Positions 17,393 through 35,808 of a DNA stretch of 64,000 nucleotides are shown in pieces (within the stretch, counting starts at the first letter, position 1; every line of letters starts with the position of its first letter). The stretch comes from an uncultured Caldithrix sp. (GTDB taxonomy: Bacteria; Calditrichota; Calditrichia; RBG-13-44-9): contig CAYWTB010000017.1 of the NCBI GenBank assembly GCA_964461135.1, forward strand, positions 5,459 through 69,458, given 5' to 3'. The translations under genes and the position numbers were made by a program. Under the pieces are notes generated by a model. The model searched no databases. It saw only the letters and a list, made by a program, of their open reading frames with translations, and was not told the DNA's origin.

Positions 17393-18652
17393 TTGGGGAG
17401 ACGTAAATTGAAAATATTTTATGTAAAAATATTTTTACTATTATTTTGCTTCAATATTATATTTGCACAAACCTTTCAACAAAAGAAGGACCAAACTAAT
17501 ACCCAACCTCAGCCACAACAAAAATTTGATATTGATCTCGAACAGCTGGAAAAATCAAGTCAACAGATAATTCCTCAACAACAATATCTGGAAACGGTGT
17601 TGGCGAAAGCCATTGATTCCACAAAATATATATTAGGTCCTGGTGATCAGATATTAATTAAAATATGGGGTCCTCTGGAAAATCAATTTCTTCTGGAAAT
17701 TACTCCGGAGGGATATCTTATCATTCCCACTGTTTCAGATTTAAAGGTATCAGGCTTGACTTTATTTCAGGGTAGTGAATTAGTCAAAAAGATGGTGAAT
17801 GATTTTTATAAGAATGTAAGTTCTTCGGTCCGCCTGGTAAGAATGCGTAAATTTCGTGTTTATATAGTTGGGGAAATCCAAAATCCCGGAACTTATTATG
17901 TTCGCTCAGCTGATCGAATTAGTGATGTTATTGAACTTGCCAATGGTTTAACAGAGTGGGCAGATGATACTCGAATTCAGGTGAAAAGTAGTATCGGTGA
18001 TTTAAATAGTATTAATATCAGTAAATTTTTCGTTTCGGGAAATCTGGATGAAAATCCTACCCTGAACGGAGGGGATATTATTTACATTCCACCCATTGAT
18101 TTGGAAAAAAATTATGTGGTGGTAGAAGGGAATGTTGGATCTGAGGGAATTTATCAGATCCAGCCGGGAGAAAATTTATATACCTTTATGACCCGTATAC
18201 GGGCCATCAATCGAAAATCGAATCTGAATAATGTTATATTGGTCAGAAACGGAGAAAAAGTGATATATGATTTGATAACAGAGGTATCGTTCGTGAAGAG
18301 GGAGGAATTGAAGTCAGGGGATCGTTTGATAATACCATCCAATCGCGATCGGGTATATGTTAAAGGTGAGGTGTATCAAGCTGGTCCTTATCCCTACATG
18401 GCCAATTTCGCCGCCCAGGATTATGCTGGTATGGCAGGTATGCTGGAATCAGCCCAGAGTGTCAACAATATTATTGTTATACGGAAGGTATCTGGAAAAG
18501 TAGAAAAGGGGGGATCAGTCATTGTGGATAAAGGAGATATCGTTGTTGTTCCACAACGAAGTCGGGAGAATACTAAAGATATTATGACTATCTTAACGCC
18601 AATTGTTAGTATCGGATTAAGCACATTTGCAATTATAAGGGCAACTAGATAG
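17393..18652 (+). CDS. wza: Polysaccharide export protein (Wza-like, Poly_export + SLBB)
   Basis: Signal peptide. Has a Poly_export motif ILGPGDQILIKIWG… and SLBB-like GEIQNPGTYYV, with repeated SLBB-like segments (KGEVYQAGPYPY). Confidence 0.8.
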   Translation: MGRRKLKIFYVKIFLLLFCFNIIFAQTFQQKKDQTNTQPQPQQKFDIDLEQLEKSSQQIIPQQQYLETVLAKAIDSTKYILGPGDQILIKIWGPLENQFLLEITPEGYLIIPTVSDLKVSGLTLFQGSELVKKMVNDFYKNVSSSVRLVRMRKFRVYIVGEIQNPGTYYVRSADRISDVIELANGLTEWADDTRIQVKSSIGDLNSINISKFFVSGNLDENPTLNGGDIIYIPPIDLEKNYVVVEGNVGSEGIYQIQPGENLYTFMTRIRAINRKSNLNNVILVRNGEKVIYDLITEVSFVKREELKSGDRLIIPSNRDRVYVKGEVYQAGPYPYMANFAAQDYAGMAGMLESAQSVNNIIVIRKVSGKVEKGGSVIVDKGDIVVVPQRSRENTKDIMTILTPIVSIGLSTFAIIRATR

Positions 18653-18675
18653 AAGAAATAAAAAAAATTATAATT

Positions 18676-19815
18676 ATGAAAAATCAAGAATTAACACCCA
18701 GTTTTCGTTTTATGAAATTGCTCTGGCAAAATCGTGTGTTTATCCTAGTTTTTAGTTTCAGTTTTTTTGTTTTATCAATTATATATAGCCTTTTGCTTCC
18801 TAAGTGGTATGAAGGAAGGGTGGTTTTCATAATAAATGAAGAAAAAAGTTATTTAGGATCGTTTTCTTCATCACTTCTAGGAAATGTTGGACTGCCATCA
18901 AATTTTCTTGGAGATTTTGCTAAACCTCTTTCAGAACAGTACATTAATTTTTTACAATCCCATTCAATTTTGGATAAAATTGATTCTATTTATAAACTTC
19001 AGGAAGCTTATGAAATAAAATATAGGAAAAGTTTTTATAGAAGAATATTATCTAATGCTAGATTCGTGGATAATAATGATAATTCAATAACTATCTATTT
19101 TTATTACAAAGAGGATCCTGATAAAGCTGCTTCAATTGCAAATTCATTTTTTATTGAATTAGAAAAATTAGTATCAAAATTACGATCAGAACGAAATGAA
19201 AAAATAAAAAATTTTCTTGAAAGAACTTATACAGAAACAATTGATAAGTTAGTTGATGCTGAAGAAAAAATGAAAAAATTTCAGTTAAATAATAAAGTTT
19301 ATTCTTTAGATGATCAAGTTAAGTTAGTAATTCAAAATATTTCAGAATTGGAAGCACAAAGAATTCAATTAGCCATTCAGAAAGAATACTTGGAATCATC
19401 TGGAGCAAAAAATACGGTAGAATATCAAGCACTGATTAATAAGATTATCATATTAAATAAATCAATCAACTCGCTTAAAACAAAAAGCGAATATATTGAT
19501 GTGCCTTTAGAGGATTTACCTTTAAAAGGACTCGAATATATAAGAATATTGAGAGAAATTAAAATTAGAGAAAAAATCTTGGAATTCGTAGTTCCACAAT
19601 TAGAAAATGCAAGGATGCAAGAATTCAGAATATCATCTACCCTTCAATTATTGGATTCCGCAGTTCCTCAAGACTATAAATCGAAACCCAAAAGAATAGT
19701 TATTGTTTTTGTGGTTACTTTTTTTGCCTTCACATTCTCAATTTTATTTTTACTAATAAAAGCGTTTATTAGAAATAACCGGCGTTCATTAACCCAAGTT
19801 TTTAATAAAGAATGA
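18676..19815 (+). CDS. wzz: Polysaccharide chain-length determinant (Wzz/PCP-family, no kinase domain)
   Basis: N-terminal TM after LLWQNRVFILVF…, a long coiled periplasmic region, and a C-terminal TM (PKRIVIVFVVTFFAFTFSILFLL). Confidence 0.65.
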   Translation: MKNQELTPSFRFMKLLWQNRVFILVFSFSFFVLSIIYSLLLPKWYEGRVVFIINEEKSYLGSFSSSLLGNVGLPSNFLGDFAKPLSEQYINFLQSHSILDKIDSIYKLQEAYEIKYRKSFYRRILSNARFVDNNDNSITIYFYYKEDPDKAASIANSFFIELEKLVSKLRSERNEKIKNFLERTYTETIDKLVDAEEKMKKFQLNNKVYSLDDQVKLVIQNISELEAQRIQLAIQKEYLESSGAKNTVEYQALINKIIILNKSINSLKTKSEYIDVPLEDLPLKGLEYIRILREIKIREKILEFVVPQLENARMQEFRISSTLQLLDSAVPQDYKSKPKRIVIVFVVTFFAFTFSILFLLIKAFIRNNRRSLTQVFNKE

Positions 19816-21101
19816 TTTACTTGAATGTTTCTCGTCAGGGGGCAAAGCTTTTTCCTTTAATACTCTTTATTATAATTTGGGTGTCTCAGGTATTTTTTTA
19901 TTTTTTAAATCCCTTTTATTATAAAGAAATAACTTTCTATACTTGGATTATTATTTTCATAGGTGTTTTTTCTTTTATTACTGGATATCTAACCTCATAT
20001 TTCTTCAAGTTTGATCGTCATTTGGTTATCAACAACTCAAACGATACTGTTAATAAATTAAATTTCCCAAGCTCAAGAATAAGAAATTTAATAATTCATA
20101 TTTCCATAATTGTTATATTTGCTATGTTTTTTGATGTAGTATTAATAATAAGTACGATTAAAAAATATAATCTCGATCCAACGAATATTTTTTGGTATAG
20201 GTTAATTTATTCCACTTTTGCACGTAATTTAACTCGCTGGAATTTTATTCACTCAATTTTGAACTATTTAATTACACTAAATTTAGTCTCAATAATTTTA
20301 TCAGCTATTTATTCCGCGATATATAAAGGCAAAATGTCTGTAACCATGTTACCGTTATTGCTTGCATTAACGTTCAGTATTATAACCCTGCAGCGATATC
20401 TTTTTACAAGTAGTTTAATTATATGGCTAATCAGTTTTTTCTTTGTTAGTTTCAATTTACCACTGTCTGAAAGAATAAAAACATTAAAGAGATTTGTCGA
20501 ATATATTGGCATTATGGTAATAATTATAGCTACTATCCTAATTCTAATAATAAGCATAAGAATTAATATAGATTTAGGAGGTGTTAAAACAGTTGAATTG
20601 ACAAAATACGTATTTAAAAGTATTTATACTTATTTTGTTGGAAACATTGTTGCTTTAGACAATTACTTACAGAGGGACATTTTGTACAAATATGGTGCAG
20701 AAATTTTTCAGAGTGTCTTCAAATGGCTCGGTAGACTTGGTTTAATAGAGTCAAAATCTATTTCAACACAATATTTAGAATTTACAGATATAGGAAATTA
20801 TACTGTAAATACTTATACATTTATTAGAAATTTCTATGAAGATTTTGGTGAAGCAAGCCTTGTAACATATGCTTATTTATGGGGCTTTATTACTTCTTAT
20901 GCCGTTGAAAAATTATTTCAGAAATTTTCCTTTGCACGTTTGTTTATTGCTAGTTATTTAGTCTTTGCTCTTTTTATTTCTTTTTTTAGTTTTGTACTTT
21001 TAAATATCTCAATGTTTTTTCTTCTAGTAATTTATTCTTGGATCATTGGAAAAATTCTTACCAATCAATATTTAAATAAACTATCAAATGAGTATCACTG
21101 A
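19812..21101 (+). CDS. Wzy-like repeat-unit polymerase / O-antigen-ligase-like polytopic membrane protein
   Basis: 429 aa, about 10-12 TM helices, low complexity. 4-nt ATGA overlap with wzz. Located between Wzz and Wzx. Assignment is by context and topology only. Confidence 0.45.
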   Translation: MIYLNVSRQGAKLFPLILFIIIWVSQVFFYFLNPFYYKEITFYTWIIIFIGVFSFITGYLTSYFFKFDRHLVINNSNDTVNKLNFPSSRIRNLIIHISIIVIFAMFFDVVLIISTIKKYNLDPTNIFWYRLIYSTFARNLTRWNFIHSILNYLITLNLVSIILSAIYSAIYKGKMSVTMLPLLLALTFSIITLQRYLFTSSLIIWLISFFFVSFNLPLSERIKTLKRFVEYIGIMVIIIATILILIISIRINIDLGGVKTVELTKYVFKSIYTYFVGNIVALDNYLQRDILYKYGAEIFQSVFKWLGRLGLIESKSISTQYLEFTDIGNYTVNTYTFIRNFYEDFGEASLVTYAYLWGFITSYAVEKLFQKFSFARLFIASYLVFALFISFFSFVLLNISMFFLLVIYSWIIGKILTNQYLNKLSNEYH

Positions 21102-22512
21102 ACACCAAATTAAATCTTTTCTCAAATTTACTTCAGTTAATATTTTAAGAAATGCTTTAGGTTTAATTAGATCTAAAGTAATTGCTATTTGGTACGGTGG
21201 TCTGGGTGTTGGGATATTGGGTCAATATGTATCATTCTTTAATCTGCAATCAAAGATTTTATTATTTGGAGCAACAGCTAGCATTATTAATTCTCATAAT
21301 AAGGCGATTAGAGAAAGCTGGAATAAACAGCTCGTTCTTTTATATCATTTATTAATAATTTTAGTAACAAACATTTTAGGTGGTTTATTCTTAATTTTAT
21401 TCTCCAATAAAATTTCAACCTTGATTTTTGATGGATTAGTTGATAACAATTTTGTTTTTTTAATGGTTTTAGTCGGATTAATCTACTCAGCTGGGATGTA
21501 TTTAGAATTATTGGTACAGGCTAGAAAAGAGTTTTCAAAATTATTTAAAGGACAAGTCTACTCTTCAATATTTGCAATTTTAACACTAATTCCGATAATT
21601 TTTATATTTGGCATTAAGGGTATTTTATATAATTTTATAATATTTTATTTAATAAGTTTTCTTTTTTTTTTAAGTACATCCGCACTTGATATTCATGAAC
21701 TTTCCAGAAATCACGTTCAATTAAATATTAAAATATTAAAATATATATTAAAGGTTTCTTTAATTGATATTGCTAGATCGATTTTAGTGATTGGTTCACT
21801 ATTAGTTGGGAGAATTTTCATAGTTAAAATAATTGGAATACAAAAAACAGGTTATTTACAATCCATTCTTAGTATTACCAATTATATAAATGTTCTATCA
21901 ATGGGTTTTATGATATATTATTTTCCAACAATAAGTTCAAAATTAAAAACAGATGATTTTTCAAATGAATTTAATTCTGGTTTTAAACTACTTATTTATT
22001 TTGTATTTCCTTTTATTATTTTAATTTATTTATTCCCTGATATCTTTATAAAATTATTATATACAAAAGAGTTCTTAATAGTAAAAAATTTTTTACCCAT
22101 ATTAATGATTAGTAAAGTGATAGAAATATACAATTATTTTTATGGTATAAATTTTTTAGGAACAAATAGATTAGGAAATTTTATTTTATTAGATGGTCTT
22201 AAATCAATTATTTTTCTTTTATTATTAGCAATTTTATTGTCTAAATTTCAAATAATAGGAATTGTATATTCTTTTCTTGGCGCTGAAATTACAGCCTTCT
22301 TATCTCTAAAAATAATCTTAAAAAAGATCACTCAACTTCAATTAAAAAGGGAAAATAATATCTTGTATTATAAAATTCTATTACTATTAATTTTATTAAA
22401 TTTCCTTGATATTAATATTTTCCTTAAAATTCTTATATCCTTATCGTATTCCATTTTGCTTCTCGATCTAAAAACTTATTTTGAATTAATTTCAATATTT
22501 AGAAAAAAATAA
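21088..22512 (+). CDS. wzx: Wzx flippase (MOP/polysaccharide biosynthesis protein family)
   Basis: 474 aa, about 12-14 TM helices. N-terminal KFTSVNILRNALGLIRSKVIAIWYGGLGVGILGQY is typical of Wzx. Confidence 0.7.
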   Translation: MSITEHQIKSFLKFTSVNILRNALGLIRSKVIAIWYGGLGVGILGQYVSFFNLQSKILLFGATASIINSHNKAIRESWNKQLVLLYHLLIILVTNILGGLFLILFSNKISTLIFDGLVDNNFVFLMVLVGLIYSAGMYLELLVQARKEFSKLFKGQVYSSIFAILTLIPIIFIFGIKGILYNFIIFYLISFLFFLSTSALDIHELSRNHVQLNIKILKYILKVSLIDIARSILVIGSLLVGRIFIVKIIGIQKTGYLQSILSITNYINVLSMGFMIYYFPTISSKLKTDDFSNEFNSGFKLLIYFVFPFIILIYLFPDIFIKLLYTKEFLIVKNFLPILMISKVIEIYNYFYGINFLGTNRLGNFILLDGLKSIIFLLLLAILLSKFQIIGIVYSFLGAEITAFLSLKIILKKITQLQLKRENNILYYKILLLLILLNFLDINIFLKILISLSYSILLLDLKTYFELISIFRKK

Positions 22513-22518
22513 GAATAA

Positions 22519-23682
22519 ATGAATATTCTACTTATCAGTTTTGAATTTCCCCCACAGCCTGGTGGCATAGGGACATATAGTTATCAGATTGCAAAAAATC
22601 TACATTATCTTAATAACAATATAACAGCTTTAGTTAATACAAATTTAATGTCTAGAGACGAGGTTGAAAAATTTGACAATTTCCAGGAATTCAACATTAT
22701 AAGATTTAAAAATTATAAGAATAAAGTTTTTAAAATTATACACAGAATATTCTTTTCATGCAAAGTCTTTGAATCTAAAAAATATGATTTAATTTTTATT
22801 ACTTATTCTCATGCTGGTATTATTGGAATAATTGGGAAATATTTATATAAAATTCCATACATTATGATGGGTCATGGTTCCGAATTTTTATATAAAAATA
22901 GATATTTGAATTTTTTTATTAGGTTATTTTTTAACTGTTCTGATTTAATTTTTGCAAATTCTAAATTCACAGCAGACTTAATGAGAAATAGAGGTATAAT
23001 TAATAAAAATTTGAAGGTTATTCCATTAGGAGCCGATGAAAAACTTTATGATAAAAATAGATATAATCCCGATTTGTTAAAGAAGAAATACGGTTTTGAG
23101 AAAAGACAAATCATTTTAACAGTGGGAAATCTATCGATAAGAAAGGGGCATAAGTATGTTATTGAGGCAGTACAGATCTTAAAAGATGATTTTCCAAATA
23201 TTCTTTATTTAATTATTGGGAGGGGAAAAGAAAGAGAATATTTAGAGAGCTTAATCGAAAAATATAATTTACATGATTATGTTAAAATAATTGGATTTGT
23301 ATCCACAGAATTGCTTCCAGAATATTATGCATTGTGCGACTTTTTCATTTTGAATAGTACTAAAGCACCAAATGGGGATGTTGAAGGTTTTGGCATTGTG
23401 CTTGTTGAAAGCGGTTTGATGGGTAAACCGGTAATTGGAACAAAGGGTTGTGGTATAGTTGAAATTATAGAACATAACAAAACTGGTTTATTAATAGAAA
23501 AGGATAGCATAAAAGATACCACTTCTGCTATTAGGGTCTTATTAAAAGATGTAAAACTCAGAAAATCATTTGGCCAAAATTTCTATTTAAAGGCTATAAA
23601 AACACTGACATGGAAAGCTGTGGCTCATAACACAAACAATGAAATTAATTCATATTTTGCTAAATATTCCACAAAAAATTAG
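22519..23682 (+). CDS. Glycosyltransferase family 4 (GT-B)
   Basis: MNILLISFEFPPQPGGIGTY… N-terminus. C-terminal EGFGIVLVESGLMGKPVIGT motif (glycos_transf_1). Confidence 0.82.
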   Translation: MNILLISFEFPPQPGGIGTYSYQIAKNLHYLNNNITALVNTNLMSRDEVEKFDNFQEFNIIRFKNYKNKVFKIIHRIFFSCKVFESKKYDLIFITYSHAGIIGIIGKYLYKIPYIMMGHGSEFLYKNRYLNFFIRLFFNCSDLIFANSKFTADLMRNRGIINKNLKVIPLGADEKLYDKNRYNPDLLKKKYGFEKRQIILTVGNLSIRKGHKYVIEAVQILKDDFPNILYLIIGRGKEREYLESLIEKYNLHDYVKIIGFVSTELLPEYYALCDFFILNSTKAPNGDVEGFGIVLVESGLMGKPVIGTKGCGIVEIIEHNKTGLLIEKDSIKDTTSAIRVLLKDVKLRKSFGQNFYLKAIKTLTWKAVAHNTNNEINSYFAKYSTKN

Positions 23683-23689
23683 TAGTGCA

Positions 23690-26058: not shown

Positions 26059-27948
26059 ATGTGTGGTATCAATGGAATATTATCCCAAAAAAGTATTAAT
26101 CACAAAGAAATTCTGCTTATGAATCAAAAAATTAATCATCGTGGCCCGGATGATGAAGGGACCTTCAAACACCAAAACATATTACTGGGTTCACGACGAT
26201 TATCTATCATCGATTTACAGGATGGTCATCAACCGATTTTCAATGAGGATAAAACTCTGGTTATTGTATTCAACGGAGAGATATATAATTATAGGGATTT
26301 ACGCAAAAATTTAATTGATAAAGGTCACCATTTTAAAACGCATTCGGATACGGAGGTTATTCTCCACCTGTATGAAGAAAAAGGAGCAGCCTGTCTGCAT
26401 AAATTGAATGGAATGTTTGCTTTTGCTATTTATGATATCAGAAATAAAGAATTGTTCCTGGCCAGAGACCGTCTGGGCAAAAAACCATTGTTTTACTGGA
26501 AGGATCAGGACCAATTTGTATTTAGTTCAGAATTAAAAGCCATTCTTCATGCCTTCCCTCTCAAGCGGTCTATCTCTGTTGAAGCACTTGAACTCTATTT
26601 CGCATTGACCTTCATACCTGCTCCCTTCACAATCTTTGAGGACATCTTTAAATTAGAAGCCGGCCATTACATGAAAATAAGTGCTGATCTCCAATATGAT
26701 ATTAGTCAATACTGGAAGATTGATGGCGACGATTCCGAATCCTCTAACTCTTTAAATTTGGGAAACCATAAGAAAAAAATCATAGAATTACTCTCTGATG
26801 CGGTTGAATTGAGGATGATATCAGATGTGCCGTTAGGAGCGTTTTTAAGCGGAGGAATAGATTCTTCGATTATTGTGGGATTAATGAGTGAAATCTCCGG
26901 AAAGAAAATTCAGACCTTTACTATCGGAAATAAAGAAAAGTCATACGATGAATCAGCAAAAGCTGAATTTGTGGCAAAATATTTTAAAACGGATCATCAT
27001 ACTTTTATCATACAAGATGATGATTATTTATCAATTTTAGATCGGGCGATAAATGATTTTGATGAACCTTTTGCAGATTCTTCAGCTCTGCCAACCTACC
27101 TTGTATCAGAATTTGCCCGCCAGCAGGTAAAAGTAATATTAACCGGGGACGGAGGAGATGAAGTTTTTGCAGGCTATAACCGCTACCTTGTATTTAAGTA
27201 TCTTGAAAAATATATGCTGCTACCCTTGATAGTAAGGAACTACATTATCAGACCAATATTCAATAATTTGCCGGTTTCCAGTAAATATAGAAAATTTGTT
27301 AAAGTTAAAAAGATTGTTAATAATGAAGGAAAAAATATTTTTGATCAATATCATGCCATGCAGCGTCTGGGATTTTCGGAAAGAGACCTGGCTGATATTT
27401 TGTTGGATAATAATAAATCAGATTACACAAGGTCCTTCGTATATGAAAAATATAATATGATTAATTATGCTTCAAACCTGAATAAGATTTTACAAACTGA
27501 TCTTACGATAGGCCTGGAAGGTGATATGCTGGTAAAGGTAGACAGGATGTCCATGCTGAATTCTCTGGAAGCCAGATGTCCTTTTTTGGATTACCGTTTA
27601 GTGGAATATTCTTTTAAAATTCCTGCCGAATTAAAATTATACCATGGTCAATTAAAATACTTGTTGAAAGAGTGTTTCAGAGAAAAAATCCCGCCTGGGA
27701 TTTTAGCTGCGCCTAAACAGGGTTTTGAAATACCAATCGGAAATTTTATCAGCAATCAATTACAGCCTAAAATCCAAAATTTTTTAAAGTCCGATCTCTT
27801 AAATACTTTAAGATTGGTTGATTTAAATAAAATAACAAAAATCAATCAGAAACATCTGTTAGGAATTGATAAATCTTTTCAGCTATGGACCTTTTTTGTT
27901 TTCGCTAATTGGGTGGAAAATTTCCAGAATTTTATCGAAATAAAATAA
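26059..27948 (+). CDS. asnB: Asparagine synthase (glutamine-hydrolysing)-family amidotransferase (AsnB/WbpS-like)
   Basis: MCGI N-terminal nucleophile Cys2. GATase-II domain and SGGIDSS PP-loop ATP pyrophosphatase motif. 629 aa. Confidence 0.88.
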   Translation: MCGINGILSQKSINHKEILLMNQKINHRGPDDEGTFKHQNILLGSRRLSIIDLQDGHQPIFNEDKTLVIVFNGEIYNYRDLRKNLIDKGHHFKTHSDTEVILHLYEEKGAACLHKLNGMFAFAIYDIRNKELFLARDRLGKKPLFYWKDQDQFVFSSELKAILHAFPLKRSISVEALELYFALTFIPAPFTIFEDIFKLEAGHYMKISADLQYDISQYWKIDGDDSESSNSLNLGNHKKKIIELLSDAVELRMISDVPLGAFLSGGIDSSIIVGLMSEISGKKIQTFTIGNKEKSYDESAKAEFVAKYFKTDHHTFIIQDDDYLSILDRAINDFDEPFADSSALPTYLVSEFARQQVKVILTGDGGDEVFAGYNRYLVFKYLEKYMLLPLIVRNYIIRPIFNNLPVSSKYRKFVKVKKIVNNEGKNIFDQYHAMQRLGFSERDLADILLDNNKSDYTRSFVYEKYNMINYASNLNKILQTDLTIGLEGDMLVKVDRMSMLNSLEARCPFLDYRLVEYSFKIPAELKLYHGQLKYLLKECFREKIPPGILAAPKQGFEIPIGNFISNQLQPKIQNFLKSDLLNTLRLVDLNKITKINQKHLLGIDKSFQLWTFFVFANWVENFQNFIEIK

Positions 27949-28243
27949 TATAGCATGCAATTATAATCTTTGTACTGTTGTCTCATTGTTCACAAATAAT
28001 ATGTCGCAGAATACTCTAATAAAATTATCTGGAAAATTTTAATTTTGAGCAGTACTGAAATAACCGGATATAAAACGAAAACTTATCTTTCAATAAATTA
28101 AGAATCCGTTCTGATTATGATTTATTCTCTGATTTTTAGTTTGGGTTATTTTTTAAAAAAACCGTTATCATTAAAATAATTATCACTTTTCGCAAGATAT
28201 ATCTGGTCATAAATTACACTCCGTACTTAAACATCTATACAAA

Positions 28244-29359
28244 ATGCATATACCTTTTGTTGATCTTAAACAACAATACCTTTCAATTCAGCGGGAAATA
28301 AAGCAGGAACTGGAAAACGTCTGCCAGAATGCCAGCTTCGTACTGGGGCCTTTTGTCAGGACTTTTGAGGAAAATTTTTCAAAATTTATAGGGATTAAAC
28401 ATACCATCGGCCTGAATTCCGGCACCTCCGCGGTTCAGTTGGCGGTGCAATCTTTCATTTCACCCGGTGATGAAGTAATTACGGTCCCCAATACGTTTAT
28501 CGCCACTACCGAAGCCATTACCGCCGCCGGGGGCAAAGTAGTTTTTGTGGATATTGAAGGAGAATCCTTCAATATGGATCCGGCAAAACTGGAATCTGCG
28601 ATTACACCCAGAACGAAAGTCATTGTCCCGGTCCATCTCTTCGGTCAACCGGCCGACATGGATCCGATCCTGGAAATCGCCCACAAACATAAAGTATTTG
28701 TGGTTGAAGATGCTGCCCAGGCCCATGGTGCGGAATACAATGGGAGAAAAGCAGGAAGTCTTGGTACGGCCGCGGCATTTTCGTTTTATCCCGGAAAAAA
28801 TCTGGGTGCCTATGGCGAGGGAGGCGCCATTACAACCAATTCAGATGATATTGCCGGCTTCGTTAAAATGTACCGAGACCATGGCTCCCGGGAAAAATAT
28901 ATACACGAGTTTGAAGGGCATAATATGCGCATGGAAGGATTTCAGGGTGCGATCCTGTCCGTTAAGCTGAAATATTTGGAAAAATGGAATAATGCCCGTC
29001 GCAATCATGCCAGGCTGTATAATAAATTATTAAGAGATGATCCTTCCGTAATCACGCCCTTAGAAATGAGTTATGCAAAGCATGTGTATCATCTGTATGT
29101 AATCCGGGTGCCAGACCGCGAAAAATTGCAGCAGTACCTGAATGAAAATGGAATTAGTTCCGGATTCCATTATAAATATCCCCTGCATTTACAGAAAGCT
29201 TATCAGTACCTGGGGCATATGCAAGGTGATTTCCCGGTTACGGAAAAGGTGATGAATGAAATTATCTCCTTACCCATGTACCCGGAATTAACTGAAGATC
29301 AGATTGAGTATGTTGTGCATCATGTAAAAAAATTTCATAAAATCAACAATTGCTCCTGA
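28244..29359 (+). CDS. DegT/DnrJ/EryC1/StrS-family PLP-dependent sugar aminotransferase (WbpE-like)
   Basis: MHIPFVDLKQQY…GTSAVQLAV… is the typical family N-terminus. Has a conserved Lys region (SFYPGKNLGAYGEGG). Confidence 0.88.
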   Translation: MHIPFVDLKQQYLSIQREIKQELENVCQNASFVLGPFVRTFEENFSKFIGIKHTIGLNSGTSAVQLAVQSFISPGDEVITVPNTFIATTEAITAAGGKVVFVDIEGESFNMDPAKLESAITPRTKVIVPVHLFGQPADMDPILEIAHKHKVFVVEDAAQAHGAEYNGRKAGSLGTAAAFSFYPGKNLGAYGEGGAITTNSDDIAGFVKMYRDHGSREKYIHEFEGHNMRMEGFQGAILSVKLKYLEKWNNARRNHARLYNKLLRDDPSVITPLEMSYAKHVYHLYVIRVPDREKLQQYLNENGISSGFHYKYPLHLQKAYQYLGHMQGDFPVTEKVMNEIISLPMYPELTEDQIEYVVHHVKKFHKINNCS

Positions 29360-29383
29360 CGATTTAAATTAAGAGGCTTTTAC

Positions 29384-30391
29384 ATGATAAACCTTGGTGT
29401 AATTGGGGTAGGGTATTGGGGACCTAATATTATTCGGAATGCCGTATTAAATAAACGATTTAAGATGAGTTGCTGCGCGGATTCAAAACCGGAAAGGCTA
29501 GATTATATTAGCGCTCTATATCCCACAATTAAAACTTCACCAAATTATAAAGAGATTATCGACGATTCGTCCATTGATGCGGTGGCGATATGTACCCCGG
29601 TTTTCACCCATTTTGAGATTGCTTCGGCCGTTCTGCAGGCGGGAAAGCATATTCTAATTGAAAAACCTATGACAGGAACCTCAGCGGAAGCGCAGCAGTT
29701 GCTTGAATTAGCTGAGAAAAATAAATTAAAGATATTGGTGGATCATACCTTTCTGTTTACCGGAGCAGTACGCAAGATTAAAGAAACTATTAAAAGCGGA
29801 GAAATCGGGGATATTTATTACTTCGATTCGGTACGAGTGAACCTGGGACTATTCCAGCATGATGTCAATGTGGTATGGGATCTGGCACCACATGATATAG
29901 CTGTCATGGATCATCTCATTGACAGGAAGGCGGAAAGTATTGTGGCAACAGGTTCGGATCACCTCGGCAATGGCCTTGAGGATGTTGCCTTTGTTACCGT
30001 TTTTTATCCGGATAATATCATTGCCCACATTCATGTGAATTGGTTATCACCGGTTAAGATCAGACAGACCCAGATCAGCGGAACCAAAAAAATGATTGTG
30101 TGGGATGACAATTCCCCCAGTGAAAAGGTTAAAATTTATGATAAAGGAATAGAAGTCATACAGACTGCCGACCAGGTTTATAATACGCTTGTGCAATACC
30201 GCACGGGGGATATGTACTGTCCGAAAATCCCGCAGAGTGAAGCTCTGGCGGTTGAGATGGATCATTTTGCCGATTGTATTGAGAAGAACATTACACCAAT
30301 ATCTGATGGATATTCCGGATGGCGGGTGGTGCAAATACTGGAATCATCCGAGAAATCGATCAAACACAGAGGCAGGGAAATCAGATTATGA
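29384..30391 (+). CDS. Gfo/Idh/MocA-family sugar-nucleotide dehydrogenase (WbpB/GnnA-like)
   Basis: Rossmann motif GVIGVGYWG, the EKP motif (ILIEKPMT) and 335 aa. Sits immediately between the aminotransferase and the acetyltransferase. Confidence 0.85.
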   Translation: MINLGVIGVGYWGPNIIRNAVLNKRFKMSCCADSKPERLDYISALYPTIKTSPNYKEIIDDSSIDAVAICTPVFTHFEIASAVLQAGKHILIEKPMTGTSAEAQQLLELAEKNKLKILVDHTFLFTGAVRKIKETIKSGEIGDIYYFDSVRVNLGLFQHDVNVVWDLAPHDIAVMDHLIDRKAESIVATGSDHLGNGLEDVAFVTVFYPDNIIAHIHVNWLSPVKIRQTQISGTKKMIVWDDNSPSEKVKIYDKGIEVIQTADQVYNTLVQYRTGDMYCPKIPQSEALAVEMDHFADCIEKNITPISDGYSGWRVVQILESSEKSIKHRGREIRL

Positions 30392-30855
30392 AATTTATCA
30401 GCATCAGCGATGACGTTGAACTCGGTCAGGGTGTTAAAATTTATAATTTTGTGAACCTGTATGGATGTAAAATAGGGGACAATACCAAGATCGGAACTTT
30501 TGTGGAAATACAGAAGGGGGCCACCGTGGGTAAAAATTGCAAAATATCCAGCCATACCTTCATCTGTGAGGGGGTTCATATTGAAGATAACTGCTTTATC
30601 GGGCACAATGTGACTTTTATAAATGATAAATACCCCCGCTCCACCAATGAAGATGGCCGCATGCAAACGGAGGAGGATTGGCAGTGTGTGCCAACCTTTG
30701 TGCGACGGGGAGCCAGCATCGGCAGTAGTGCCACCATACTCTGTGGTGTAACCATCGGGGAGAATGCCATTGTGGGTGCGGGAGCAGTCGTAACCAAAGA
30801 TGTTCCCCCTAATATCACCGTGACAGGAGTACCCGCCAGGACTATTAAAGGCTAG
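30388..30855 (+). CDS. Hexapeptide-repeat (left-handed beta-helix) sugar N-acetyltransferase (WbpD-like)
   Basis: ATG at 30388 overlaps the upstream stop (ATGA). Has repeated [LIV]G-x4 hexapeptides (IGDNTKIGTFVEIQKGATVGKNCKI…). 155 aa. Confidence 0.8.
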   Translation: MKFISISDDVELGQGVKIYNFVNLYGCKIGDNTKIGTFVEIQKGATVGKNCKISSHTFICEGVHIEDNCFIGHNVTFINDKYPRSTNEDGRMQTEEDWQCVPTFVRRGASIGSSATILCGVTIGENAIVGAGAVVTKDVPPNITVTGVPARTIKG

Positions 30856-31128: not shown

Positions 31129-33663
31129 ATGAATTTTTTTATTATTTTTCTTTCAGCATTCATTTTATCTCTGGTCGCCGTATATGCAATAAAACGGATC
31201 GCCCTGAGGTTAAAAATTGGTTCTTTACCTTCGCCTCGCAAACTTCACCGGGGATTCAAACCTCTGCTGGGAGGGGTTGGTTTCGCTATTGCCATATTAT
31301 TGTCAATTTTGATTGGACAATTGATTGGCCTCCTTCCCCGGGAAGTCTGGATTCAGTATAAATATTTCTGGACGGGTTTTTTTATTGTGTTGCTTACCGG
31401 GATTGTGGATGATGTCGGTGGTATTTCCTCCAGAATAAAGTTTTTAGGGGAAGCCACCGGGGCCATCCTGTTAATATTAGGTGGCTGCAAGATTCAATCC
31501 TTCAGCGGTTCCATCGGTGAGGTTTTAAATCTGGGAATATTTTCCATACCATTCACCTTCCTCTGGATTATTTTTATTATTAACGCTATCAACTTATTGG
31601 ATGGTCTGGACGGCCTGGCTGCAGGTGTTGGTTTCCTTATTACCACCGGTATGATTATCATCGGAATAATGATAAATGGCATTTTTTTGGTGGTCCTGGG
31701 ATTGGGGCTTGCAGGAGCTTTACTGGGTTTCCTGAAATATAATTATCATCCTGCCTCTATTTTCATGGGAGAGGCGGGAAGTCTGCAGCTGGGTTACCTG
31801 CTGGCTTTCTTTTCCATTGAGAATCTCAAGGTAGCCGGAAGTCACCAAATCTATTTTATGGTGGCACTGGTTCTTTTCTGTGTACCCATGACGGACACAC
31901 TGGTGTCTTTTCTCAGAAGACTGGGACAGGGCCATAGTCCCTTTCTCGCAGATAAGGAGCATATACATCACCGCCTGCTGAAATTAGGTCTCTCCCATCT
32001 TCAGACCGTCTGGTTAATGTATTTTCTGACCTTTTTTTATGTTACTGCCGGTGTTTTAATTTTTTATTTTAAGGGATTCCTGGGATTAATTTTGTTCGGA
32101 ATTGCCTTCTTTCTGGCAGTTTTCTGGATTTACAGATTGGGTTATGTGGAGACCAGGTTTTCCTGGCAGAAATTTGCACATCAGTTCCAGCAAATGGTAA
32201 TCGTTAAAGCCCGAGCTCCACTTCACTTTAACCGAATCTGGCATCGTCTCATCCTGATTATCAGTGACGTTCTCACCGTAAACTTTGCCTTATACTCCAT
32301 GCACTGGTTTAAATTTGAATCAGGTGTTTTTGCCCAGTCCACCTATCGCCCCATTTCTGACTATTTCTTCAGCCCTGTTTTTCTTTTCCTTTTGCTGGCC
32401 TGGATATTTCTGTTTTTTGTTAATAATCTGTATCAACTGGACTGGGATATCTCCCGTTTCGAAAAAACCTGGCGGGTATCTAAGGTAATTACCTTCGGAA
32501 TCATACTTCTGGGTTTATTAACTATTGATTTCCGACGGCTCATCAGTGAATCCCAACTTATATCGCTTCTGGGTTACTGGATAATGATGATAATTTTTGT
32601 AAATACCGGTCGTTTGATAATAATTGGGATTGAAAAGAGGCTTCGTATTTTCGAATATTCTCCCCGCAAAACTCTGATCATTGGTCTAACGGATCTAGCA
32701 AAAAAAGTTTACAGGGATATTCAATATAATCCTCATCTAATCTTTGATGTAATTGGATTCGTAGCTAAAAAATCGAAGGAAAATACATACCTGGGATTGC
32801 CGGTCCTGGGCAGTTATAGGGATTTGCCGGAAATAATTCACCGCTATAAAATTCAGGAGGTAATTATTGCCTTGCCGGAGAGTTCCAGTCAGGATTTTAT
32901 CAATATCCTGGGTTTGTGTGAGCCGCAAGGAGTAAAAATTAAAACCTTGCCGGGGCGGCAGGAATTTTTATCTTCACAACGGCTAAATCTGGTTAGCCAC
33001 AGTTTTATCCAACTTTTCACGGAAAGTATGGTGCTGTGGCAATGGGTTATTAAAAGACTGGTTGACCTGCTGCTTTCCCTGATTTTTGTGATTCTGCTTT
33101 CTCCGTTCCTCCTGGCGGTGAGTATAATTCTGGTTTATTATTTCAGGAAATCTGTACTGGTAAAGGTACCGGTGATGGGAGAGAATGGTATTCCCTTTAA
33201 CATGTATGTTTTTCGTCTTACCGGGAAAAATTATGATTATCAGGATAATGCTATTTATCTGGGCACTGATCCCCCGGCTGCGGACGCTGCAGGATTTATC
33301 TTGTTTTTATTCAGGTACAGATTTTATAAATTACCTCAACTGCTGAATGTTTTTCTCGGTGATATGAGTATTGTAGGACCGCGGCCCGAACCGATCGAAT
33401 GGTATCAGGAATTCAGCCCTCTGGTTAAATTTCTACACCGCAGGATTATGGTCAGACCCGGTCTCACCGGTCTGGCCCAGGTAAAGTATCATTATGAACT
33501 TTCCCAGAAAAAATTACAGGAATGGGCGAGATTTGACATGTATTACACTGAAAATTTATCTCTGCGGATGGACATGGGGATACTTATACGAACTATTCTG
33601 ATGATTTTTGTCAAACCTTATCAGAATTCAAAAAAAGAAAAGGTGCGGATCCCGGGGCTTTAA
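31129..33663 (+). CDS. Fusion protein: N-terminal WecA/MraY-family polyprenyl-phosphate N-acetylhexosamine-1-P transferase + C-terminal WbaP-type PGT scaffold with degenerate active site
   Basis: Residues 1 to about 345 carry the PNPT motifs IVDDVGG, NAINLLDGLDGLAAG, PASIFMGEAGSLQLGYLLA and KEHIHHRLL. Residues about 350-600 hold TM helices and a CoA-binding-like Rossmann segment (LIIGLTDLAKKVY…VIIALPE). Residues about 610-844 form a Bac_transf domain (GDMSIVGPRPEP, RPGLTGLAQV). In that domain the residues preceding LPQL are YK instead of the catalytic DE. Confidence 0.75.
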   Translation: MNFFIIFLSAFILSLVAVYAIKRIALRLKIGSLPSPRKLHRGFKPLLGGVGFAIAILLSILIGQLIGLLPREVWIQYKYFWTGFFIVLLTGIVDDVGGISSRIKFLGEATGAILLILGGCKIQSFSGSIGEVLNLGIFSIPFTFLWIIFIINAINLLDGLDGLAAGVGFLITTGMIIIGIMINGIFLVVLGLGLAGALLGFLKYNYHPASIFMGEAGSLQLGYLLAFFSIENLKVAGSHQIYFMVALVLFCVPMTDTLVSFLRRLGQGHSPFLADKEHIHHRLLKLGLSHLQTVWLMYFLTFFYVTAGVLIFYFKGFLGLILFGIAFFLAVFWIYRLGYVETRFSWQKFAHQFQQMVIVKARAPLHFNRIWHRLILIISDVLTVNFALYSMHWFKFESGVFAQSTYRPISDYFFSPVFLFLLLAWIFLFFVNNLYQLDWDISRFEKTWRVSKVITFGIILLGLLTIDFRRLISESQLISLLGYWIMMIIFVNTGRLIIIGIEKRLRIFEYSPRKTLIIGLTDLAKKVYRDIQYNPHLIFDVIGFVAKKSKENTYLGLPVLGSYRDLPEIIHRYKIQEVIIALPESSSQDFINILGLCEPQGVKIKTLPGRQEFLSSQRLNLVSHSFIQLFTESMVLWQWVIKRLVDLLLSLIFVILLSPFLLAVSIILVYYFRKSVLVKVPVMGENGIPFNMYVFRLTGKNYDYQDNAIYLGTDPPAADAAGFILFLFRYRFYKLPQLLNVFLGDMSIVGPRPEPIEWYQEFSPLVKFLHRRIMVRPGLTGLAQVKYHYELSQKKLQEWARFDMYYTENLSLRMDMGILIRTILMIFVKPYQNSKKEKVRIPGL

Positions 33664-33672
33664 TTCTTCTTA

Positions 33673-35808
33673 ATGGCCATTTTAAAGGGTCAAAAGTATA
33701 TGCCAAGAAAGAATCCATCTAAAAAAATTGAAATATCTGTTATCATTGTAAATTACAATGTGAAAGACTATCTGGCACATGCACTTTCCTCGATTGAACG
33801 GGCTTTGAAAAATATTTCCTATGAAATAATTGTTGTGGATAATAATTCAATTGATGGCTCAGTCTCATACCTGAAGACGCACTTTCCCGGCGTAAAATTG
33901 ATTGCAAATCAGGAGAACGTAGGATTTGGCCGGGCCAATAACCAGGCAATCAAGAAGATCAGCGGTAAATATGTTGTACTGATTAATCCGGATACTTTGG
34001 TACAGGAGGATACCTTTAACCGCCTGCTGGATTTTTTTAATAATACGCCGGACGCCGCTGCGGCAACATGCAAAATCATAAATCCTGATGGCAGTTTTTC
34101 CATCGACTGCAGGCATAGTATACCTTCACCCTCAATCGCTTTATGGAAGGTGACAGGACTAAGCACGTTGTTTCCCCGTAGCCGTATCTTCGGACAGTAT
34201 AATCTTACATTTCTGGACGAAAATGAAATCTACCAGGTTCCGGCAATCTCGGGCTCCTTCATGATGATAAAAAAAGAGGTTCTGGATCATGTAGGACTTT
34301 TCGATGAACGTTTTTTTATGTATTGTGAGGATATTGATCTCTGTCACCGGATTAACTGCAGCGGCTACAAAATTTATTACGTCCCAACTACCAGCATTAT
34401 TCACTATAAAGGGGAAAGTACCAAGAAGAACCGTCTGGATTATGTGCTCACATTCAATAAATCGCTTTACCTCTTTTTTCAGAAATATTATGCCCCAACC
34501 TCCGTATTTCTGTTCCGTTGGTTAGTTACTGCGGGAATATTCATGAGGGCAATTTTTATTTATATAAAGAATTTTTTTAACAACCAGTTTCCCCTTCTTC
34601 TGGATACATTACTTTTGAACATCATTATTTTCCTGTCCTTCGTGATCAGATTGGAAACGAGCCGCGGATTCCGCTGGAAAGAGTATACTGATCAATTTTG
34701 GGTAATTAATGTCATCGGTACGGGTCTTTTCCTGGGGCTGGCTTTCTATCTGGATATCTATCCCAACAGGCGTTTTTCTATTCAAAGTATTGTTAAAGCC
34801 AACATTTTGACTTTCCTGTTGCTGGCCGCCCTCACGTTTTTCTTTAAACAGTTTGCTTTTTCACGGATGGTGGTTTTACTGACTTTTATATTCAGTCCCA
34901 TGGTCATGATTGGCTGGCGTTTTGTTCTGCGAAAATACTACCGAGGAGACCGATCCGCACTTGGGAAAGACCTTTTTGCTAAGCCGACCCTGGTGGTCGG
35001 AAGCGGGGAAGGGGCGGAATTGTTGTTTAAAAAGTTAATAAGTTATAAAAGTATTGACTACGATTTAAAAGGGTGGGTGTCTGTTGATGATACGGTGAAT
35101 GATCAGGAACTTTCTCTAACTAAAAATCTTGGCACGGTTAAAAATCTCTCCCAGATTATAAAAATGTACAAAATTCGTCAGGTTATTTTTTCTGCCCATT
35201 CACTCAGTTACGAAGAAATCCTGAAAATTATGTCTGGAGTAAGGAATACGCTGGTTGAATTCAAGATGGTTCCATCCAATTTTGAAGTGGTTATCGGTAA
35301 ATCGCATATTGAAAAACTGGATGCTTATCCTCTATTGGATATTGAATATTCATTGGGACGAAAATTTAATCAATTTTTAAAAAGAGTAGTGGATATTTCT
35401 TTTTCTCTGCCATTAATCATTATTCTCTCCCCTTTGATATTCCCGGAACTGTTGTTATTTAAAAAGAATTATAAAAAACGGACATTCCAGGGTGCAGGAA
35501 GTAAAACTGTCCGGATATATTGCCCGGTATCTGAACAGGGATTCAGTCCGGTACGAAGCTGGTCTCTGTTTCTGCAGGTACTTGTGGGAAATCTTTCGCT
35601 GGTTGGAGCACCACTCAGGGAGAGTTACCAGGAAATGCTTAACGGCAAATACTTTTTTAAACCCGGCCTCACCGGTCTGGTACAAATTAACCGGGAAAAA
35701 ATCAATTCACCGGAGGATGAAGAAAAATACCATCTTTATTATATGAAGAATCAGTCTACTTTACTGGATTTTGAAATTATGCTGAAATCATTCCGGAAGG
35801 TAAAATAA
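33673..35808 (+). CDS. Fusion protein: N-terminal GT2 (GT-A) glycosyltransferase + C-terminal WbaP-like PGT scaffold with degenerate motifs
   Basis: Residues about 17-260 are GT2 (ISVIIVNYNVKDYL…IIVVDNNSIDGS…, DxD-like CEDIDLCHR). Then come TM helices and a CoA-binding-like segment (PTLVVGSGEGAELL). The C-terminus has degenerate Bac_transf motifs: GNLSLVGAPLRE instead of GDMSLVGPRPE, KPGLTGLVQI, and no DE dyad. Confidence 0.7.
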   Translation: MAILKGQKYMPRKNPSKKIEISVIIVNYNVKDYLAHALSSIERALKNISYEIIVVDNNSIDGSVSYLKTHFPGVKLIANQENVGFGRANNQAIKKISGKYVVLINPDTLVQEDTFNRLLDFFNNTPDAAAATCKIINPDGSFSIDCRHSIPSPSIALWKVTGLSTLFPRSRIFGQYNLTFLDENEIYQVPAISGSFMMIKKEVLDHVGLFDERFFMYCEDIDLCHRINCSGYKIYYVPTTSIIHYKGESTKKNRLDYVLTFNKSLYLFFQKYYAPTSVFLFRWLVTAGIFMRAIFIYIKNFFNNQFPLLLDTLLLNIIIFLSFVIRLETSRGFRWKEYTDQFWVINVIGTGLFLGLAFYLDIYPNRRFSIQSIVKANILTFLLLAALTFFFKQFAFSRMVVLLTFIFSPMVMIGWRFVLRKYYRGDRSALGKDLFAKPTLVVGSGEGAELLFKKLISYKSIDYDLKGWVSVDDTVNDQELSLTKNLGTVKNLSQIIKMYKIRQVIFSAHSLSYEEILKIMSGVRNTLVEFKMVPSNFEVVIGKSHIEKLDAYPLLDIEYSLGRKFNQFLKRVVDISFSLPLIIILSPLIFPELLLFKKNYKKRTFQGAGSKTVRIYCPVSEQGFSPVRSWSLFLQVLVGNLSLVGAPLRESYQEMLNGKYFFKPGLTGLVQINREKINSPEDEEKYHLYYMKNQSTLLDFEIMLKSFRKVK

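Follow-up and report, generated by a model that had tools for sequence, protein, structure and literature searches.

Large monotopic phosphoglycosyl transferases (PGTs) such as WbaP initiate the synthesis of O-antigen, capsule and exopolysaccharide. In a 64-kb stretch of DNA from an uncultured Caldithrix sp. (GenBank contig CAYWTB010000017.1, positions 5,459 to 69,458; hereafter the window), a gene at 33673..35808 encodes a 711-aa protein that is probably a membrane-bound glycosyltransferase of the GT2 family, with a C-terminal two-thirds that derives from a WbaP-type large PGT and now serves as a non-catalytic scaffold. Its upstream partner gene, at 31129..33663, encodes an 844-aa protein in which a polytopic PGT domain of the WecA/MraY type is joined to a second WbaP-like module. 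The first gene is defined by the listing of open reading frames (ORFs), its Pfam domains and homologous clusters, the second by its ORF, Pfam and NCBIfam matches and 113 full-length relatives. Both ORFs run in the same direction, the 844-aa gene first, with a spacer of 9 nt between them, just as an original prediction made from the sequence of the window had described. All coordinates refer to the + strand of the window, and residue numbers to the two ORF products, called 711 and 844. The likely true start of the 711-aa ORF is its second ATG at 33700 (Met10), yielding 702 aa, because the database entry P0001 has 702 aa and the family alignment begins only around residues 14-20.

Architecture of the GT2/pseudo-PGT fusion

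Three Pfam domains match 711 above the Pfam cut-offs: Glycos_transf_2 (PF00535; residues 22-206, 88.9 bits vs a cut-off of 23.3), CoA_binding_3 (PF13727; residues 363-534, 51.3 bits) and Bac_transf (PF02397; residues 633-710, 54.9 bits vs a cut-off of 27), the last of which covers only positions 94-177 of the 179 in the profile. The original prediction had read the same order from the translation, i.e. an N-terminal GT-A/GT2 domain followed by transmembrane (TM) helices, a CoA-binding-like segment and a C-terminal Bac_transf-like domain. Each of these parts is recovered, the TM helices as a four-helix bundle and the Bac_transf domain as a partial profile match, and the motif strings named at the time are all found in the translation (PTLVVGSGEGAELL at residues 437-450, GNLSLVGAPLRE at 639-650 and KPGLTGLVQI at 663-672).

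The GT-A fold catalytic domain (residues ~21-251; 33733..34425) is supported by PF00535, by PF13641 (73.6 bits on the same domain), by a Foldseek match to the GT2 structure 6p61 (target TM-score, TMt, of 0.80) and by invariant columns. It combines the GT2 profile and the GT-A fold with a nucleotide-binding Asp, a DxD-type metal site and an acidic catalytic base. This domain looks active because D56, D107 (in NPDT), E219 and D220 (in YCEDID) and H244 are invariant in the family alignment and because it is the best-conserved region of the protein.

Downstream of the GT2 domain, a hydrophobic or amphipathic helix of uncertain topology (residues 279-304) leads into the four-helix TM bundle of the WbaP-like module (residues ~305-422; 34585..34938), as judged from TIGR03025, the helices of an AlphaFold2 (AF2) model, hydropathy and Foldseek. 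It is followed by a Rossmann-like domain of unknown function (DUF) that includes TLVVGSGEGAELL (34978..35256; the CoA_binding_3 match), in which T439, G443 and K454 are conserved across the family alignment. A β-hairpin region, VEFKMVPSNFEVVIGKSHIEKLDAYPLLDIEY (residues 529-560; 35257..35352), aligns to WbaP residues 237-269 and is the equivalent of the domain-swapping hairpin N251-Q268 of that enzyme; the AF2 monomer model of 711 has a pLDDT below 50 at residues 542-557 within it. The re-entrant membrane helix of the PGT fold (residues 564-595, the full span of the AF2 helix; 35362..35457; KR..D....SP) aligns to ALKRAFDIVGSLSIIIVLSP of WbaP and has the Lys-Arg start and helix-breaking Pro of monotopic PGTs, with K570 and R571 invariant and D574 and P587 nearly so. 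Finally, the retained C-terminal half of Bac_transf (35587..35802) comprises GNLSLVGAPLRE, KPGLTGLVQIN and YMKNQS..LD.EI, as delimited by PF02397, conserved columns and a match to PglC (8e37; E=1.7e-9, residues 634-710).

A four-helix TM bundle and a CoA_binding_3 DUF ahead of a PGT domain is the arrangement of the large PGTs. Accordingly, positions 1-278 of TIGR03025 align to residues 309-590 of 711, and NCBIfam models of the WbaP/WcaJ type align again near the C-terminus. All large-PGT models nonetheless score far below their cut-offs (TIGR03025, 168.6 vs 295.55; TIGR03023, 136.9 vs 410.75; TIGR03022, 82.2 vs 403). The best Foldseek match of the AF2 model (pLDDT 73.8) is WbaP (8t53; E 1.5e-13), followed by GT-A enzymes. 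Both the E-values and the conservation in over 100 homologous clusters rule out a chance similarity.

Loss of PGT chemistry throughout a widespread family

Alignment to solved WbaP structures places 88 residues of WbaP (301-388) opposite 44 residues of 711 (591-634), revealing a deletion of about 44 residues that has removed the YKFRTM-like motif, the mobile helix-turn-helix and the Asp-Glu dyad. The remnant of this catalytic core, delimited by the WbaP alignment and by conservation (residues 596-638; 35458..35586), contains neither YKFRTM nor Asp-Glu, and the position of the PRP motif reads APL (VGAPL; family consensus VGaP). Hence, three hallmarks of monotopic PGTs are missing from 711: the Asp-Glu dyad before the LPQL element, YKF(R/K)(T/S)M and VGPRP. 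The loss of the dyad had been anticipated in the original prediction, which also asked whether the catalytic residues might have shifted. A shifted dyad is excluded because residues 592-638 contain no conserved acidic column: Asp/Glu reaches at most 28% at any position among 116 family members and at most 16% across phyla. Judged by its residues, the PGT domain of 711 is dead for PGT chemistry.

The same architecture recurs in at least 115 full-length clusters (~700 aa) with the same three Pfam domains, found in a search of 5.8 billion proteins at identities down to 48% and named after Calditrichia, Calditrichota or Caldithrix abyssi. Within this family, the mean frequency of the top residue is highest in the GT2 domain (0.79), almost equally high in the hairpin (residues 529-560; 0.78) and lowest in the core remnant (residues 596-638; 0.34). 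When the C-terminal module alone was searched against 1.84 billion representatives, all 57 matches of at least 620 aa turned out to carry an N-terminal GT2 domain. The dyad and YKFRTM are absent from every one of these 57 and, with rare exceptions, so is PRP; canonical proteins of 440-500 aa among the same matches keep YKFRSM, SLDELPQL and VGPRPE.

A genome scan with one genome per species yielded at least 591 confirmed relatives. The best 80 loci cover 711 end to end and belong to Calditrichota, KSB1, Ignavibacteriota/Kryptonia, Bacteroidota-labelled metagenome-assembled genomes (MAGs), Rhodothermales, Balneolaceae, Marinimicrobia and Zhuqueibacter. By the motifs above, the PGT part is dead in every GT2-fused member examined, namely the 57 representatives and 75 genomic copies, and the IGK motif (IIGK...) of the hairpin is conserved across phyla irrespective of whether a large-PGT gene lies nearby. 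A frameshift that merged two genes, which had been named as a possible artefact, is rejected, given that no fewer than 115 clusters and 80 genomes keep the full-length fusion.

Two MAGs labelled Calditrichota/Calditrichaceae (L026 and L030) encode GT2/pseudo-PGT proteins with 37-39% identity to 711 that are linked to accA or to a small GT2 gene. In sequence, these fall among KSB1-like proteins and outside the paired Calditrichota clade. Either the labels of the two MAGs are unreliable or Calditrichota possess two paralogues.

The upstream partner: a polytopic PGT fused to an altered monotopic one

The polytopic PGT core of 844 (31366..31818) matches Glycos_transf_4 (PF00953) with 121.5 bits vs a cut-off of 27 and contains DD at residues 94-95, NAINLLDGLDGL at 152-163 and FMGEAGS at 212-218; HIHH (residues 278-281) follows just 3′ of this interval. 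DD, NxxNxxDGxDGL and HxHH are invariant in all 113 full-length relatives, and FMG(D/E)xGS has Asp in 91 and Glu in 22 of them. Together with matches of the AF2 model to MraY (TMt 0.70-0.79), 844 thus has the profile, the fold and the signature motifs of a polytopic PGT, and its WecA-type domain looks active on the strength of these residues. Its score against TIGR02380 (WecA) is 118 bits, with a cut-off of 326, so the WecA equivalog level is not reached.

Behind this domain, 844 carries a CoA_binding_3 match and a Bac_transf domain of full length (33052..33609; PF02397, 128.5 bits, positions 1-178 of 179; PglC alignment) that keeps GDMSIVGPRPE and RPGLTGLAQV. Against TIGR03025, 844 reaches 251.6 bits, under the cut-off of 295.55. 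The best Foldseek match of the model (pLDDT 79.4, pTM 0.77) is again WbaP (8t53; E 3.4e-13), and it also matches PglC (TMt 0.74-0.78). The hairpin region is retained here, too, and is likewise a low-confidence element of the monomer model.

The Asp-Glu dyad is replaced by Tyr733-Lys734 (codons at 33325..33330; SLDELPQL in PglC vs RFYKLPQL), with the remainder of the domain intact. Among the 113 relatives, Tyr occupies the first position in 107 and Lys the second in 104; Phe, His or Asn stands at the first position in some, and Asp-Glu is never seen. No part of the protein is better conserved than the C-terminal half of this altered catalytic domain (0.64). The conservation of both Tyr-Lys and the C-terminal half points to a retained function, plausibly ligand binding, and looks like re-purposing rather than decay. 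The earlier claim that both genes carry degenerate WbaP-type modules therefore needs to be divided: neither module has the Asp-Glu dyad, but that of 844 is altered at this dyad only and is not generally eroded. That each module is joined to a different transferase with intact motifs, a GT2 in 711 and a WecA/MraY-type polytopic PGT in 844, is confirmed.

Gene pairing across phyla

In Calditrichota, the 844-type and 711-type genes are adjacent in 10/10 assessable loci. The intergenic distances are -4, -4, 5, -4, 43, -4, -4, 1, 11, 0, -1 and 850 nt, meaning that at most 43 nt separate the pair in 11 of 12 loci, five of them with 4-nt overlaps, while the other neighbours vary. An active large PGT is encoded 0.75-3.6 kb upstream of the GT2/pseudo-PGT gene in 15/16 cases from Ignavibacteriota and in 10/13 from Bacteroidota-labelled genomes. 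These stand-alone partners are related to the 844 module and keep the dyad, e.g. RKLHIDEVPQ...GDMSLVGPRPER.

In two Bacteroidota-labelled MAGs, the upstream partner is instead a fusion of a WecA-type domain and a large PGT with both active sites intact. These fusions (L025:1641-4127 and L054:1472-4147) contain DD, NxxNxxDGxDGL, FMGDTGS and HIHH as well as LDE(I/V)PQ and VGPRP. From these motifs, a dual-active PGT is possible, and the fusions are likely to represent the precursor state of the Tyr-Lys form of Calditrichota.

Outside Calditrichota (L014-L082, e.g. L027:5250-8954), the GT2/pseudo-PGT gene is almost always located directly upstream of accA and usually directly downstream of a gene for a GT2 protein of 238-252 aa, the best NCBIfam matches of which, all sub-threshold, are polyprenyl-phosphate sugar synthases (AglJ, PgfS, PpgS, ArnC). 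This synteny across phyla suggests a core envelope function. Orthologues of neither accA nor the small GT2 gene were found in the 64-kb window, where only a DegT relative is present.

The surrounding polysaccharide cluster

The two genes are part of a larger cluster. A Wza-like exporter, a protein resembling polysaccharide co-polymerases (PCPs), a Wzy polymerase and a Wzx-like flippase are encoded at 17393..22512 (Poly_export/SLBB; TIGR04370, 90 bits vs a cut-off of 40; weak PCP and WzxE matches). Genes for nucleotide-sugar modification follow at 26059..30855, comprising an AsnB-type amidotransferase, a DegT aminotransferase, an oxidoreductase resembling UDP-GlcNAc 3-dehydrogenase and a hexapeptide acetyltransferase. 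Several GT1-family enzymes are present as well. Based on its gene content, the cluster is of the Wzx/Wzy type and predicted to make a polymer with modified amino sugars. The Wzx/Wzy-dependent pathway requires an initiating PGT. A tblastn search of the window that used PglC, the modules of 711 and 844 and the WecA-type domain as queries returned no other mono- or polytopic PGT, which makes the WecA-type domain of 844 the sole candidate initiator.

Several further features of the window deserve mention. A 768-aa protein encoded at 23639-25945 consists of two complete GT-B units (Glycos_transf_1/Glyco_transf_4) in tandem and is a third fused transferase in the cluster. Between 18000 and 24000, the GC content falls to 0.25-0.31, compared to ~0.40 elsewhere in the window; this region spans the PCP-like, Wzy, Wzx-like and first GT1 genes, and such a drop is typical of exchangeable serotype-specific genes. 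The ORF of the hexapeptide acetyltransferase as listed (30319-30855) overlaps the upstream oxidoreductase gene by 73 nt; the public call of this protein (L083) has 155 aa, which corresponds to a start near 30388 and a 4-nt overlap. Lastly, an unrelated 760-aa DEAD/DEAH helicase with a C-terminal MrfA Zn-binding domain is encoded at 39433-41715, downstream of genes resembling those for the lipopolysaccharide core.

Proposed mechanism and alternative explanations

A structural or tethering role for the dead modules, as already envisaged in the original prediction, is the most reasonable reading. On balance, we favour a scheme in which the WecA-type domain of 844 initiates synthesis, the GT2 domain of 711 adds the second sugar and the dead modules act as anchoring and dimerising scaffolds that hold these early enzymes together. 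The WecA-type domain would load the first sugar phosphate onto undecaprenyl phosphate (Und-P), this sugar probably being a modified N-acetylhexosamine that the products of the neighbouring aminotransferase, dehydrogenase and acetyltransferase genes make. The GT2 domain of 711 would then add the next sugar to the undecaprenyl-diphosphate (Und-PP)-linked sugar at the cytoplasmic face, before GT1-family enzymes, Wzx, Wzy and Wza finish and export the polymer. To this, the scaffold of 711 would contribute a membrane anchor made of the four TM helices and the re-entrant helix, a DUF of the type that handles uridine nucleotides and a WbaP-like dimer hairpin. The two WbaP-like modules would keep the early enzymes together at the membrane, most likely through a WbaP-style dimer, be it in the form of hetero- or homodimers. 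The sequences and models establish the domain architecture, the loss of PGT catalytic residues next to intact GT2 and WecA-type ones, the conservation of the family, the close pairing of the genes and the separate origins of the dead modules. In which order the reactions take place, which sugars are donated and accepted, and that the proteins dimerise or are physically coupled, is what we infer here.

WbaP itself is a homodimer held together by a β-hairpin that is domain-swapped between the DUFs, which bind UMP/UDP and contribute to the dimer contact, and its hairpin was likewise of low confidence in the monomer model before a dimer model was built (PMC10942596). A role in scaffolding or dimerisation is supported for the modules discussed here because both proteins keep the hairpin, because it is as conserved as the GT2 domain in the 711 family and because it has low confidence in both monomer models.

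Several observations weigh against the proposed scheme. The GT2 domain of 711 has no equivalog-level match in NCBIfam that would indicate its donor and acceptor. The helix at residues 279-304 is hydrophobic; were it to cross the membrane, the GT2 domain would end up on one side and the DUF on the other. The WecA-type domain of the window has Glu215 (31771-31773; FMGEAGS) in place of the usual Asp, a conservative change that is shared with the other Glu-bearing relatives to make up the 22 of 113. Moreover, no large PGT lies within 6 kb of the GT2/pseudo-PGT gene in KSB1 (0/4), Marinimicrobia (0/3) and 'Cytophagia'-labelled genomes (0/4). The hairpin is equally conserved in these partner-less loci, and a heterodimer with a PGT can therefore not be universal to the family.

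The last point also keeps alive a simpler account, less probable in our view, whereby the dead module does nothing more than anchor and homodimerise the GT2 domain to which it is fused. There would be no specific contact with 844, and the adjacency of the two genes would reflect the operon order of consecutive steps. Conservation of the IIGK... hairpin in all phyla, whatever the partner, fits this account, as does the homodimeric state of WbaP and other large PGTs (PMC10942596) and the low identity between the modules of 711 and 844 (23%). It does not readily explain why the pair is so tightly spaced in Calditrichota, with frequent 4-nt overlaps amid otherwise differing neighbours, nor why an active, orthologue-like large PGT is encoded in linkage with this gene in Ignavibacteriota and Bacteroidota.

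We consider it improbable that the dead PGT domain presents Und-P to the fused GT2 domain, which would then make an Und-P-sugar in the manner of dolichol-phosphate mannose synthase (DPMS), GtrB or ArnC instead of extending an Und-PP-glycan. Such a function could account for the conserved re-entrant helix and C-terminal half of the PGT fold, and it may draw on two structural hints: the N-terminal half of the GT2 domain matches the dolichol-phosphate mannose synthase structure 5mlz (E 5.5e-8), among many other GT2s, and helices like interface helices follow the GT-A domain in the AF2 model. However, the PGT fold no longer has its PRP motif, the GT2 matches are generic, with rhamnosyltransferase-type models being the longest, and other phyla already have a separate small GT2 of the polyprenyl-phosphate-synthase type next door. 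The linkage to an initiating PGT also fits sequential assembly on Und-PP.

Very little speaks for the idea that the C-terminal domain of 711, or the Tyr-Lys domain of 844, is still a working PGT that relies on shifted or alternative residues. The conserved Tyr-Lys pair and C-terminal half of 844 would be in line with activity, and a few GT2-fused relatives retain PRP (L044, P0278). Yet the dyad segment of 711 is deleted altogether with no conserved acidic column in its place, the Phe, His or Asn found in some 844 relatives argues against a Tyr nucleophile, and the Asp-Glu dyad has been described as conserved across monotopic PGTs (PMC10942596).

Returning to the scheme of two scaffolded early enzymes, a bolder version of it can be offered only tentatively. 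A hairpin-swapped heterodimer of 711 and 844 might physically couple the WecA-type initiator to the second-step GT2 in a dedicated initiation complex made of two pseudo-enzymes, with the Tyr-Lys domain serving as a metal-independent site that captures the Und-PP-sugar (or UDP-sugar) for the GT2 domain. The TM bundle, DUF and hairpin might then be a general docking device for early glycan enzymes.

Independent origins of the two dead modules

The modules of 711 and 844 share 23% identity (54 bits), and canonical active large PGTs outrank any 844-type protein when the 711 module is searched against the 1.84 billion representatives. Relationships were assessed by bootstrapped neighbour-joining, i.e. 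distance trees as opposed to maximum likelihood, with 100 bootstraps. The GT2-fused modules are monophyletic in 100/100. The Tyr-Lys modules of the Calditrichota 844 proteins group with the Asp-Glu-retaining fusions of WecA and large PGT from Bacteroidota in 100/100, also when only the TM and DUF columns are used, and this WecA-fusion clade nests with neighbouring active stand-alone large PGTs (97-100/100). In trees from all columns or from the TM and DUF columns, modules of the 711 and 844 types come out as sisters in 0/100; they do so in 38/100 when only the degenerate catalytic columns are considered, a pairing that looks like long-branch attraction. Degeneration of the 711 type is common to the phyla of the Fibrobacterota-Chlorobiota-Bacteroidota (FCB) group; loss of the dyad in the 844 type is confined to Calditrichota.

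On these trees, the two inactivations are independent, an ancient one of the 711 type and a Calditrichota-specific one of the 844 type, because the 844 module nests among active large PGTs and never with the GT2-fused modules. In the simplest history, an ancient GT2/pseudo-PGT would have resided beside an active large PGT, to which a WecA-type domain was later fused; in Calditrichota, the then redundant monotopic site would have been switched off by the change from Asp-Glu to Tyr-Lys. The original prediction had proposed that one pseudo-PGT scaffold was duplicated in tandem. Adjacency, shared domain order and absence of the dyad from both modules speak for this, but it is hardly credible, since apart from the catalytic-column tree the similarity ranking, the trees and the differing phyletic range of the two losses all contradict it.

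Relation to known systems and implications

The closest relatives of both modules are WbaP and the other large monotopic PGTs (CoA_binding_3 and Bac_transf; 8t53), which display the same order of four TM helices, Rossmann-like DUF, β-hairpin, re-entrant helix and PGT fold. Compared to WbaP, 711 is missing roughly half of the catalytic core together with the Asp-Glu dyad and PRP, and it carries a GT2 domain at its N-terminus, whereas 844 keeps the whole fold with Tyr-Lys for Asp-Glu. The N-terminal 340 residues of 844 share the fold and the invariant DD, NxxNxxDGxDGL and HIHH with the polytopic PGTs WecA and MraY but, unlike these, are fused to a WbaP-like module.

Fusions of a PGT core to a glycosyltransferase or an acetyltransferase are known from the bifunctional monotopic PGTs (BiPGTs), e.g. 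Neisseria PglB (PMC11626204, PMC12776464). Like them, 711 combines in one polypeptide a domain of the monotopic PGT family with another catalytic domain that handles sugars in the same pathway. In the BiPGTs described so far, however, the PGT is an active initiator, whereas the PGT core of 711 is without its catalytic residues. What appears to be new relative to BiPGTs is that the PGT part is dead throughout a broad family and that a polytopic PGT is fused to a monotopic one; we found no description of dead PGT modules or of WecA-WbaP fusions in the literature searched, although an earlier mention may exist.

The four TM helices and DUF also occur on NDP-sugar dehydratases of the PglF/Cap5D type, for reasons that have been called puzzling (PMC10942596). 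With 711, there is a further case of this part of the large PGTs being joined to a catalytic domain unrelated to them. Whereas the dehydratases have no more than the four TM helices and the DUF, 711 has also kept the re-entrant helix and one half of the PGT fold, and its catalytic partner is an N-terminal GT2 domain. If the four TM helices, DUF and hairpin indeed had a general docking role, this would explain their presence on PglF-type dehydratases.

For genome annotation, these findings carry a warning. Proteins of the 711 and 844 types match Bac_transf and are labelled 'sugar transferase', and it would be wrong to count them as initiating PGTs on that basis.

The role of the TM/DUF half of large PGTs and the hand-over of the first lipid-linked intermediate are the questions that this locus addresses. 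Here, the chemistry has been deleted and the scaffold strongly conserved in a family that extends across at least six phyla of the FCB group. In Calditrichota, polytopic and monotopic PGT folds are found in one chain, of which the monotopic one is predicted to be switched off via a conserved change from Asp-Glu to Tyr-Lys. The Bacteroidota-labelled fusions in which both folds are intact and the loci with separate active partners would represent the evolutionary intermediates. With both proteins encoded by the cultured species Caldithrix abyssi, the family may allow scaffold function, dimerisation and a possible hand-off of substrate to be studied directly by experiment, apart from PGT catalysis.

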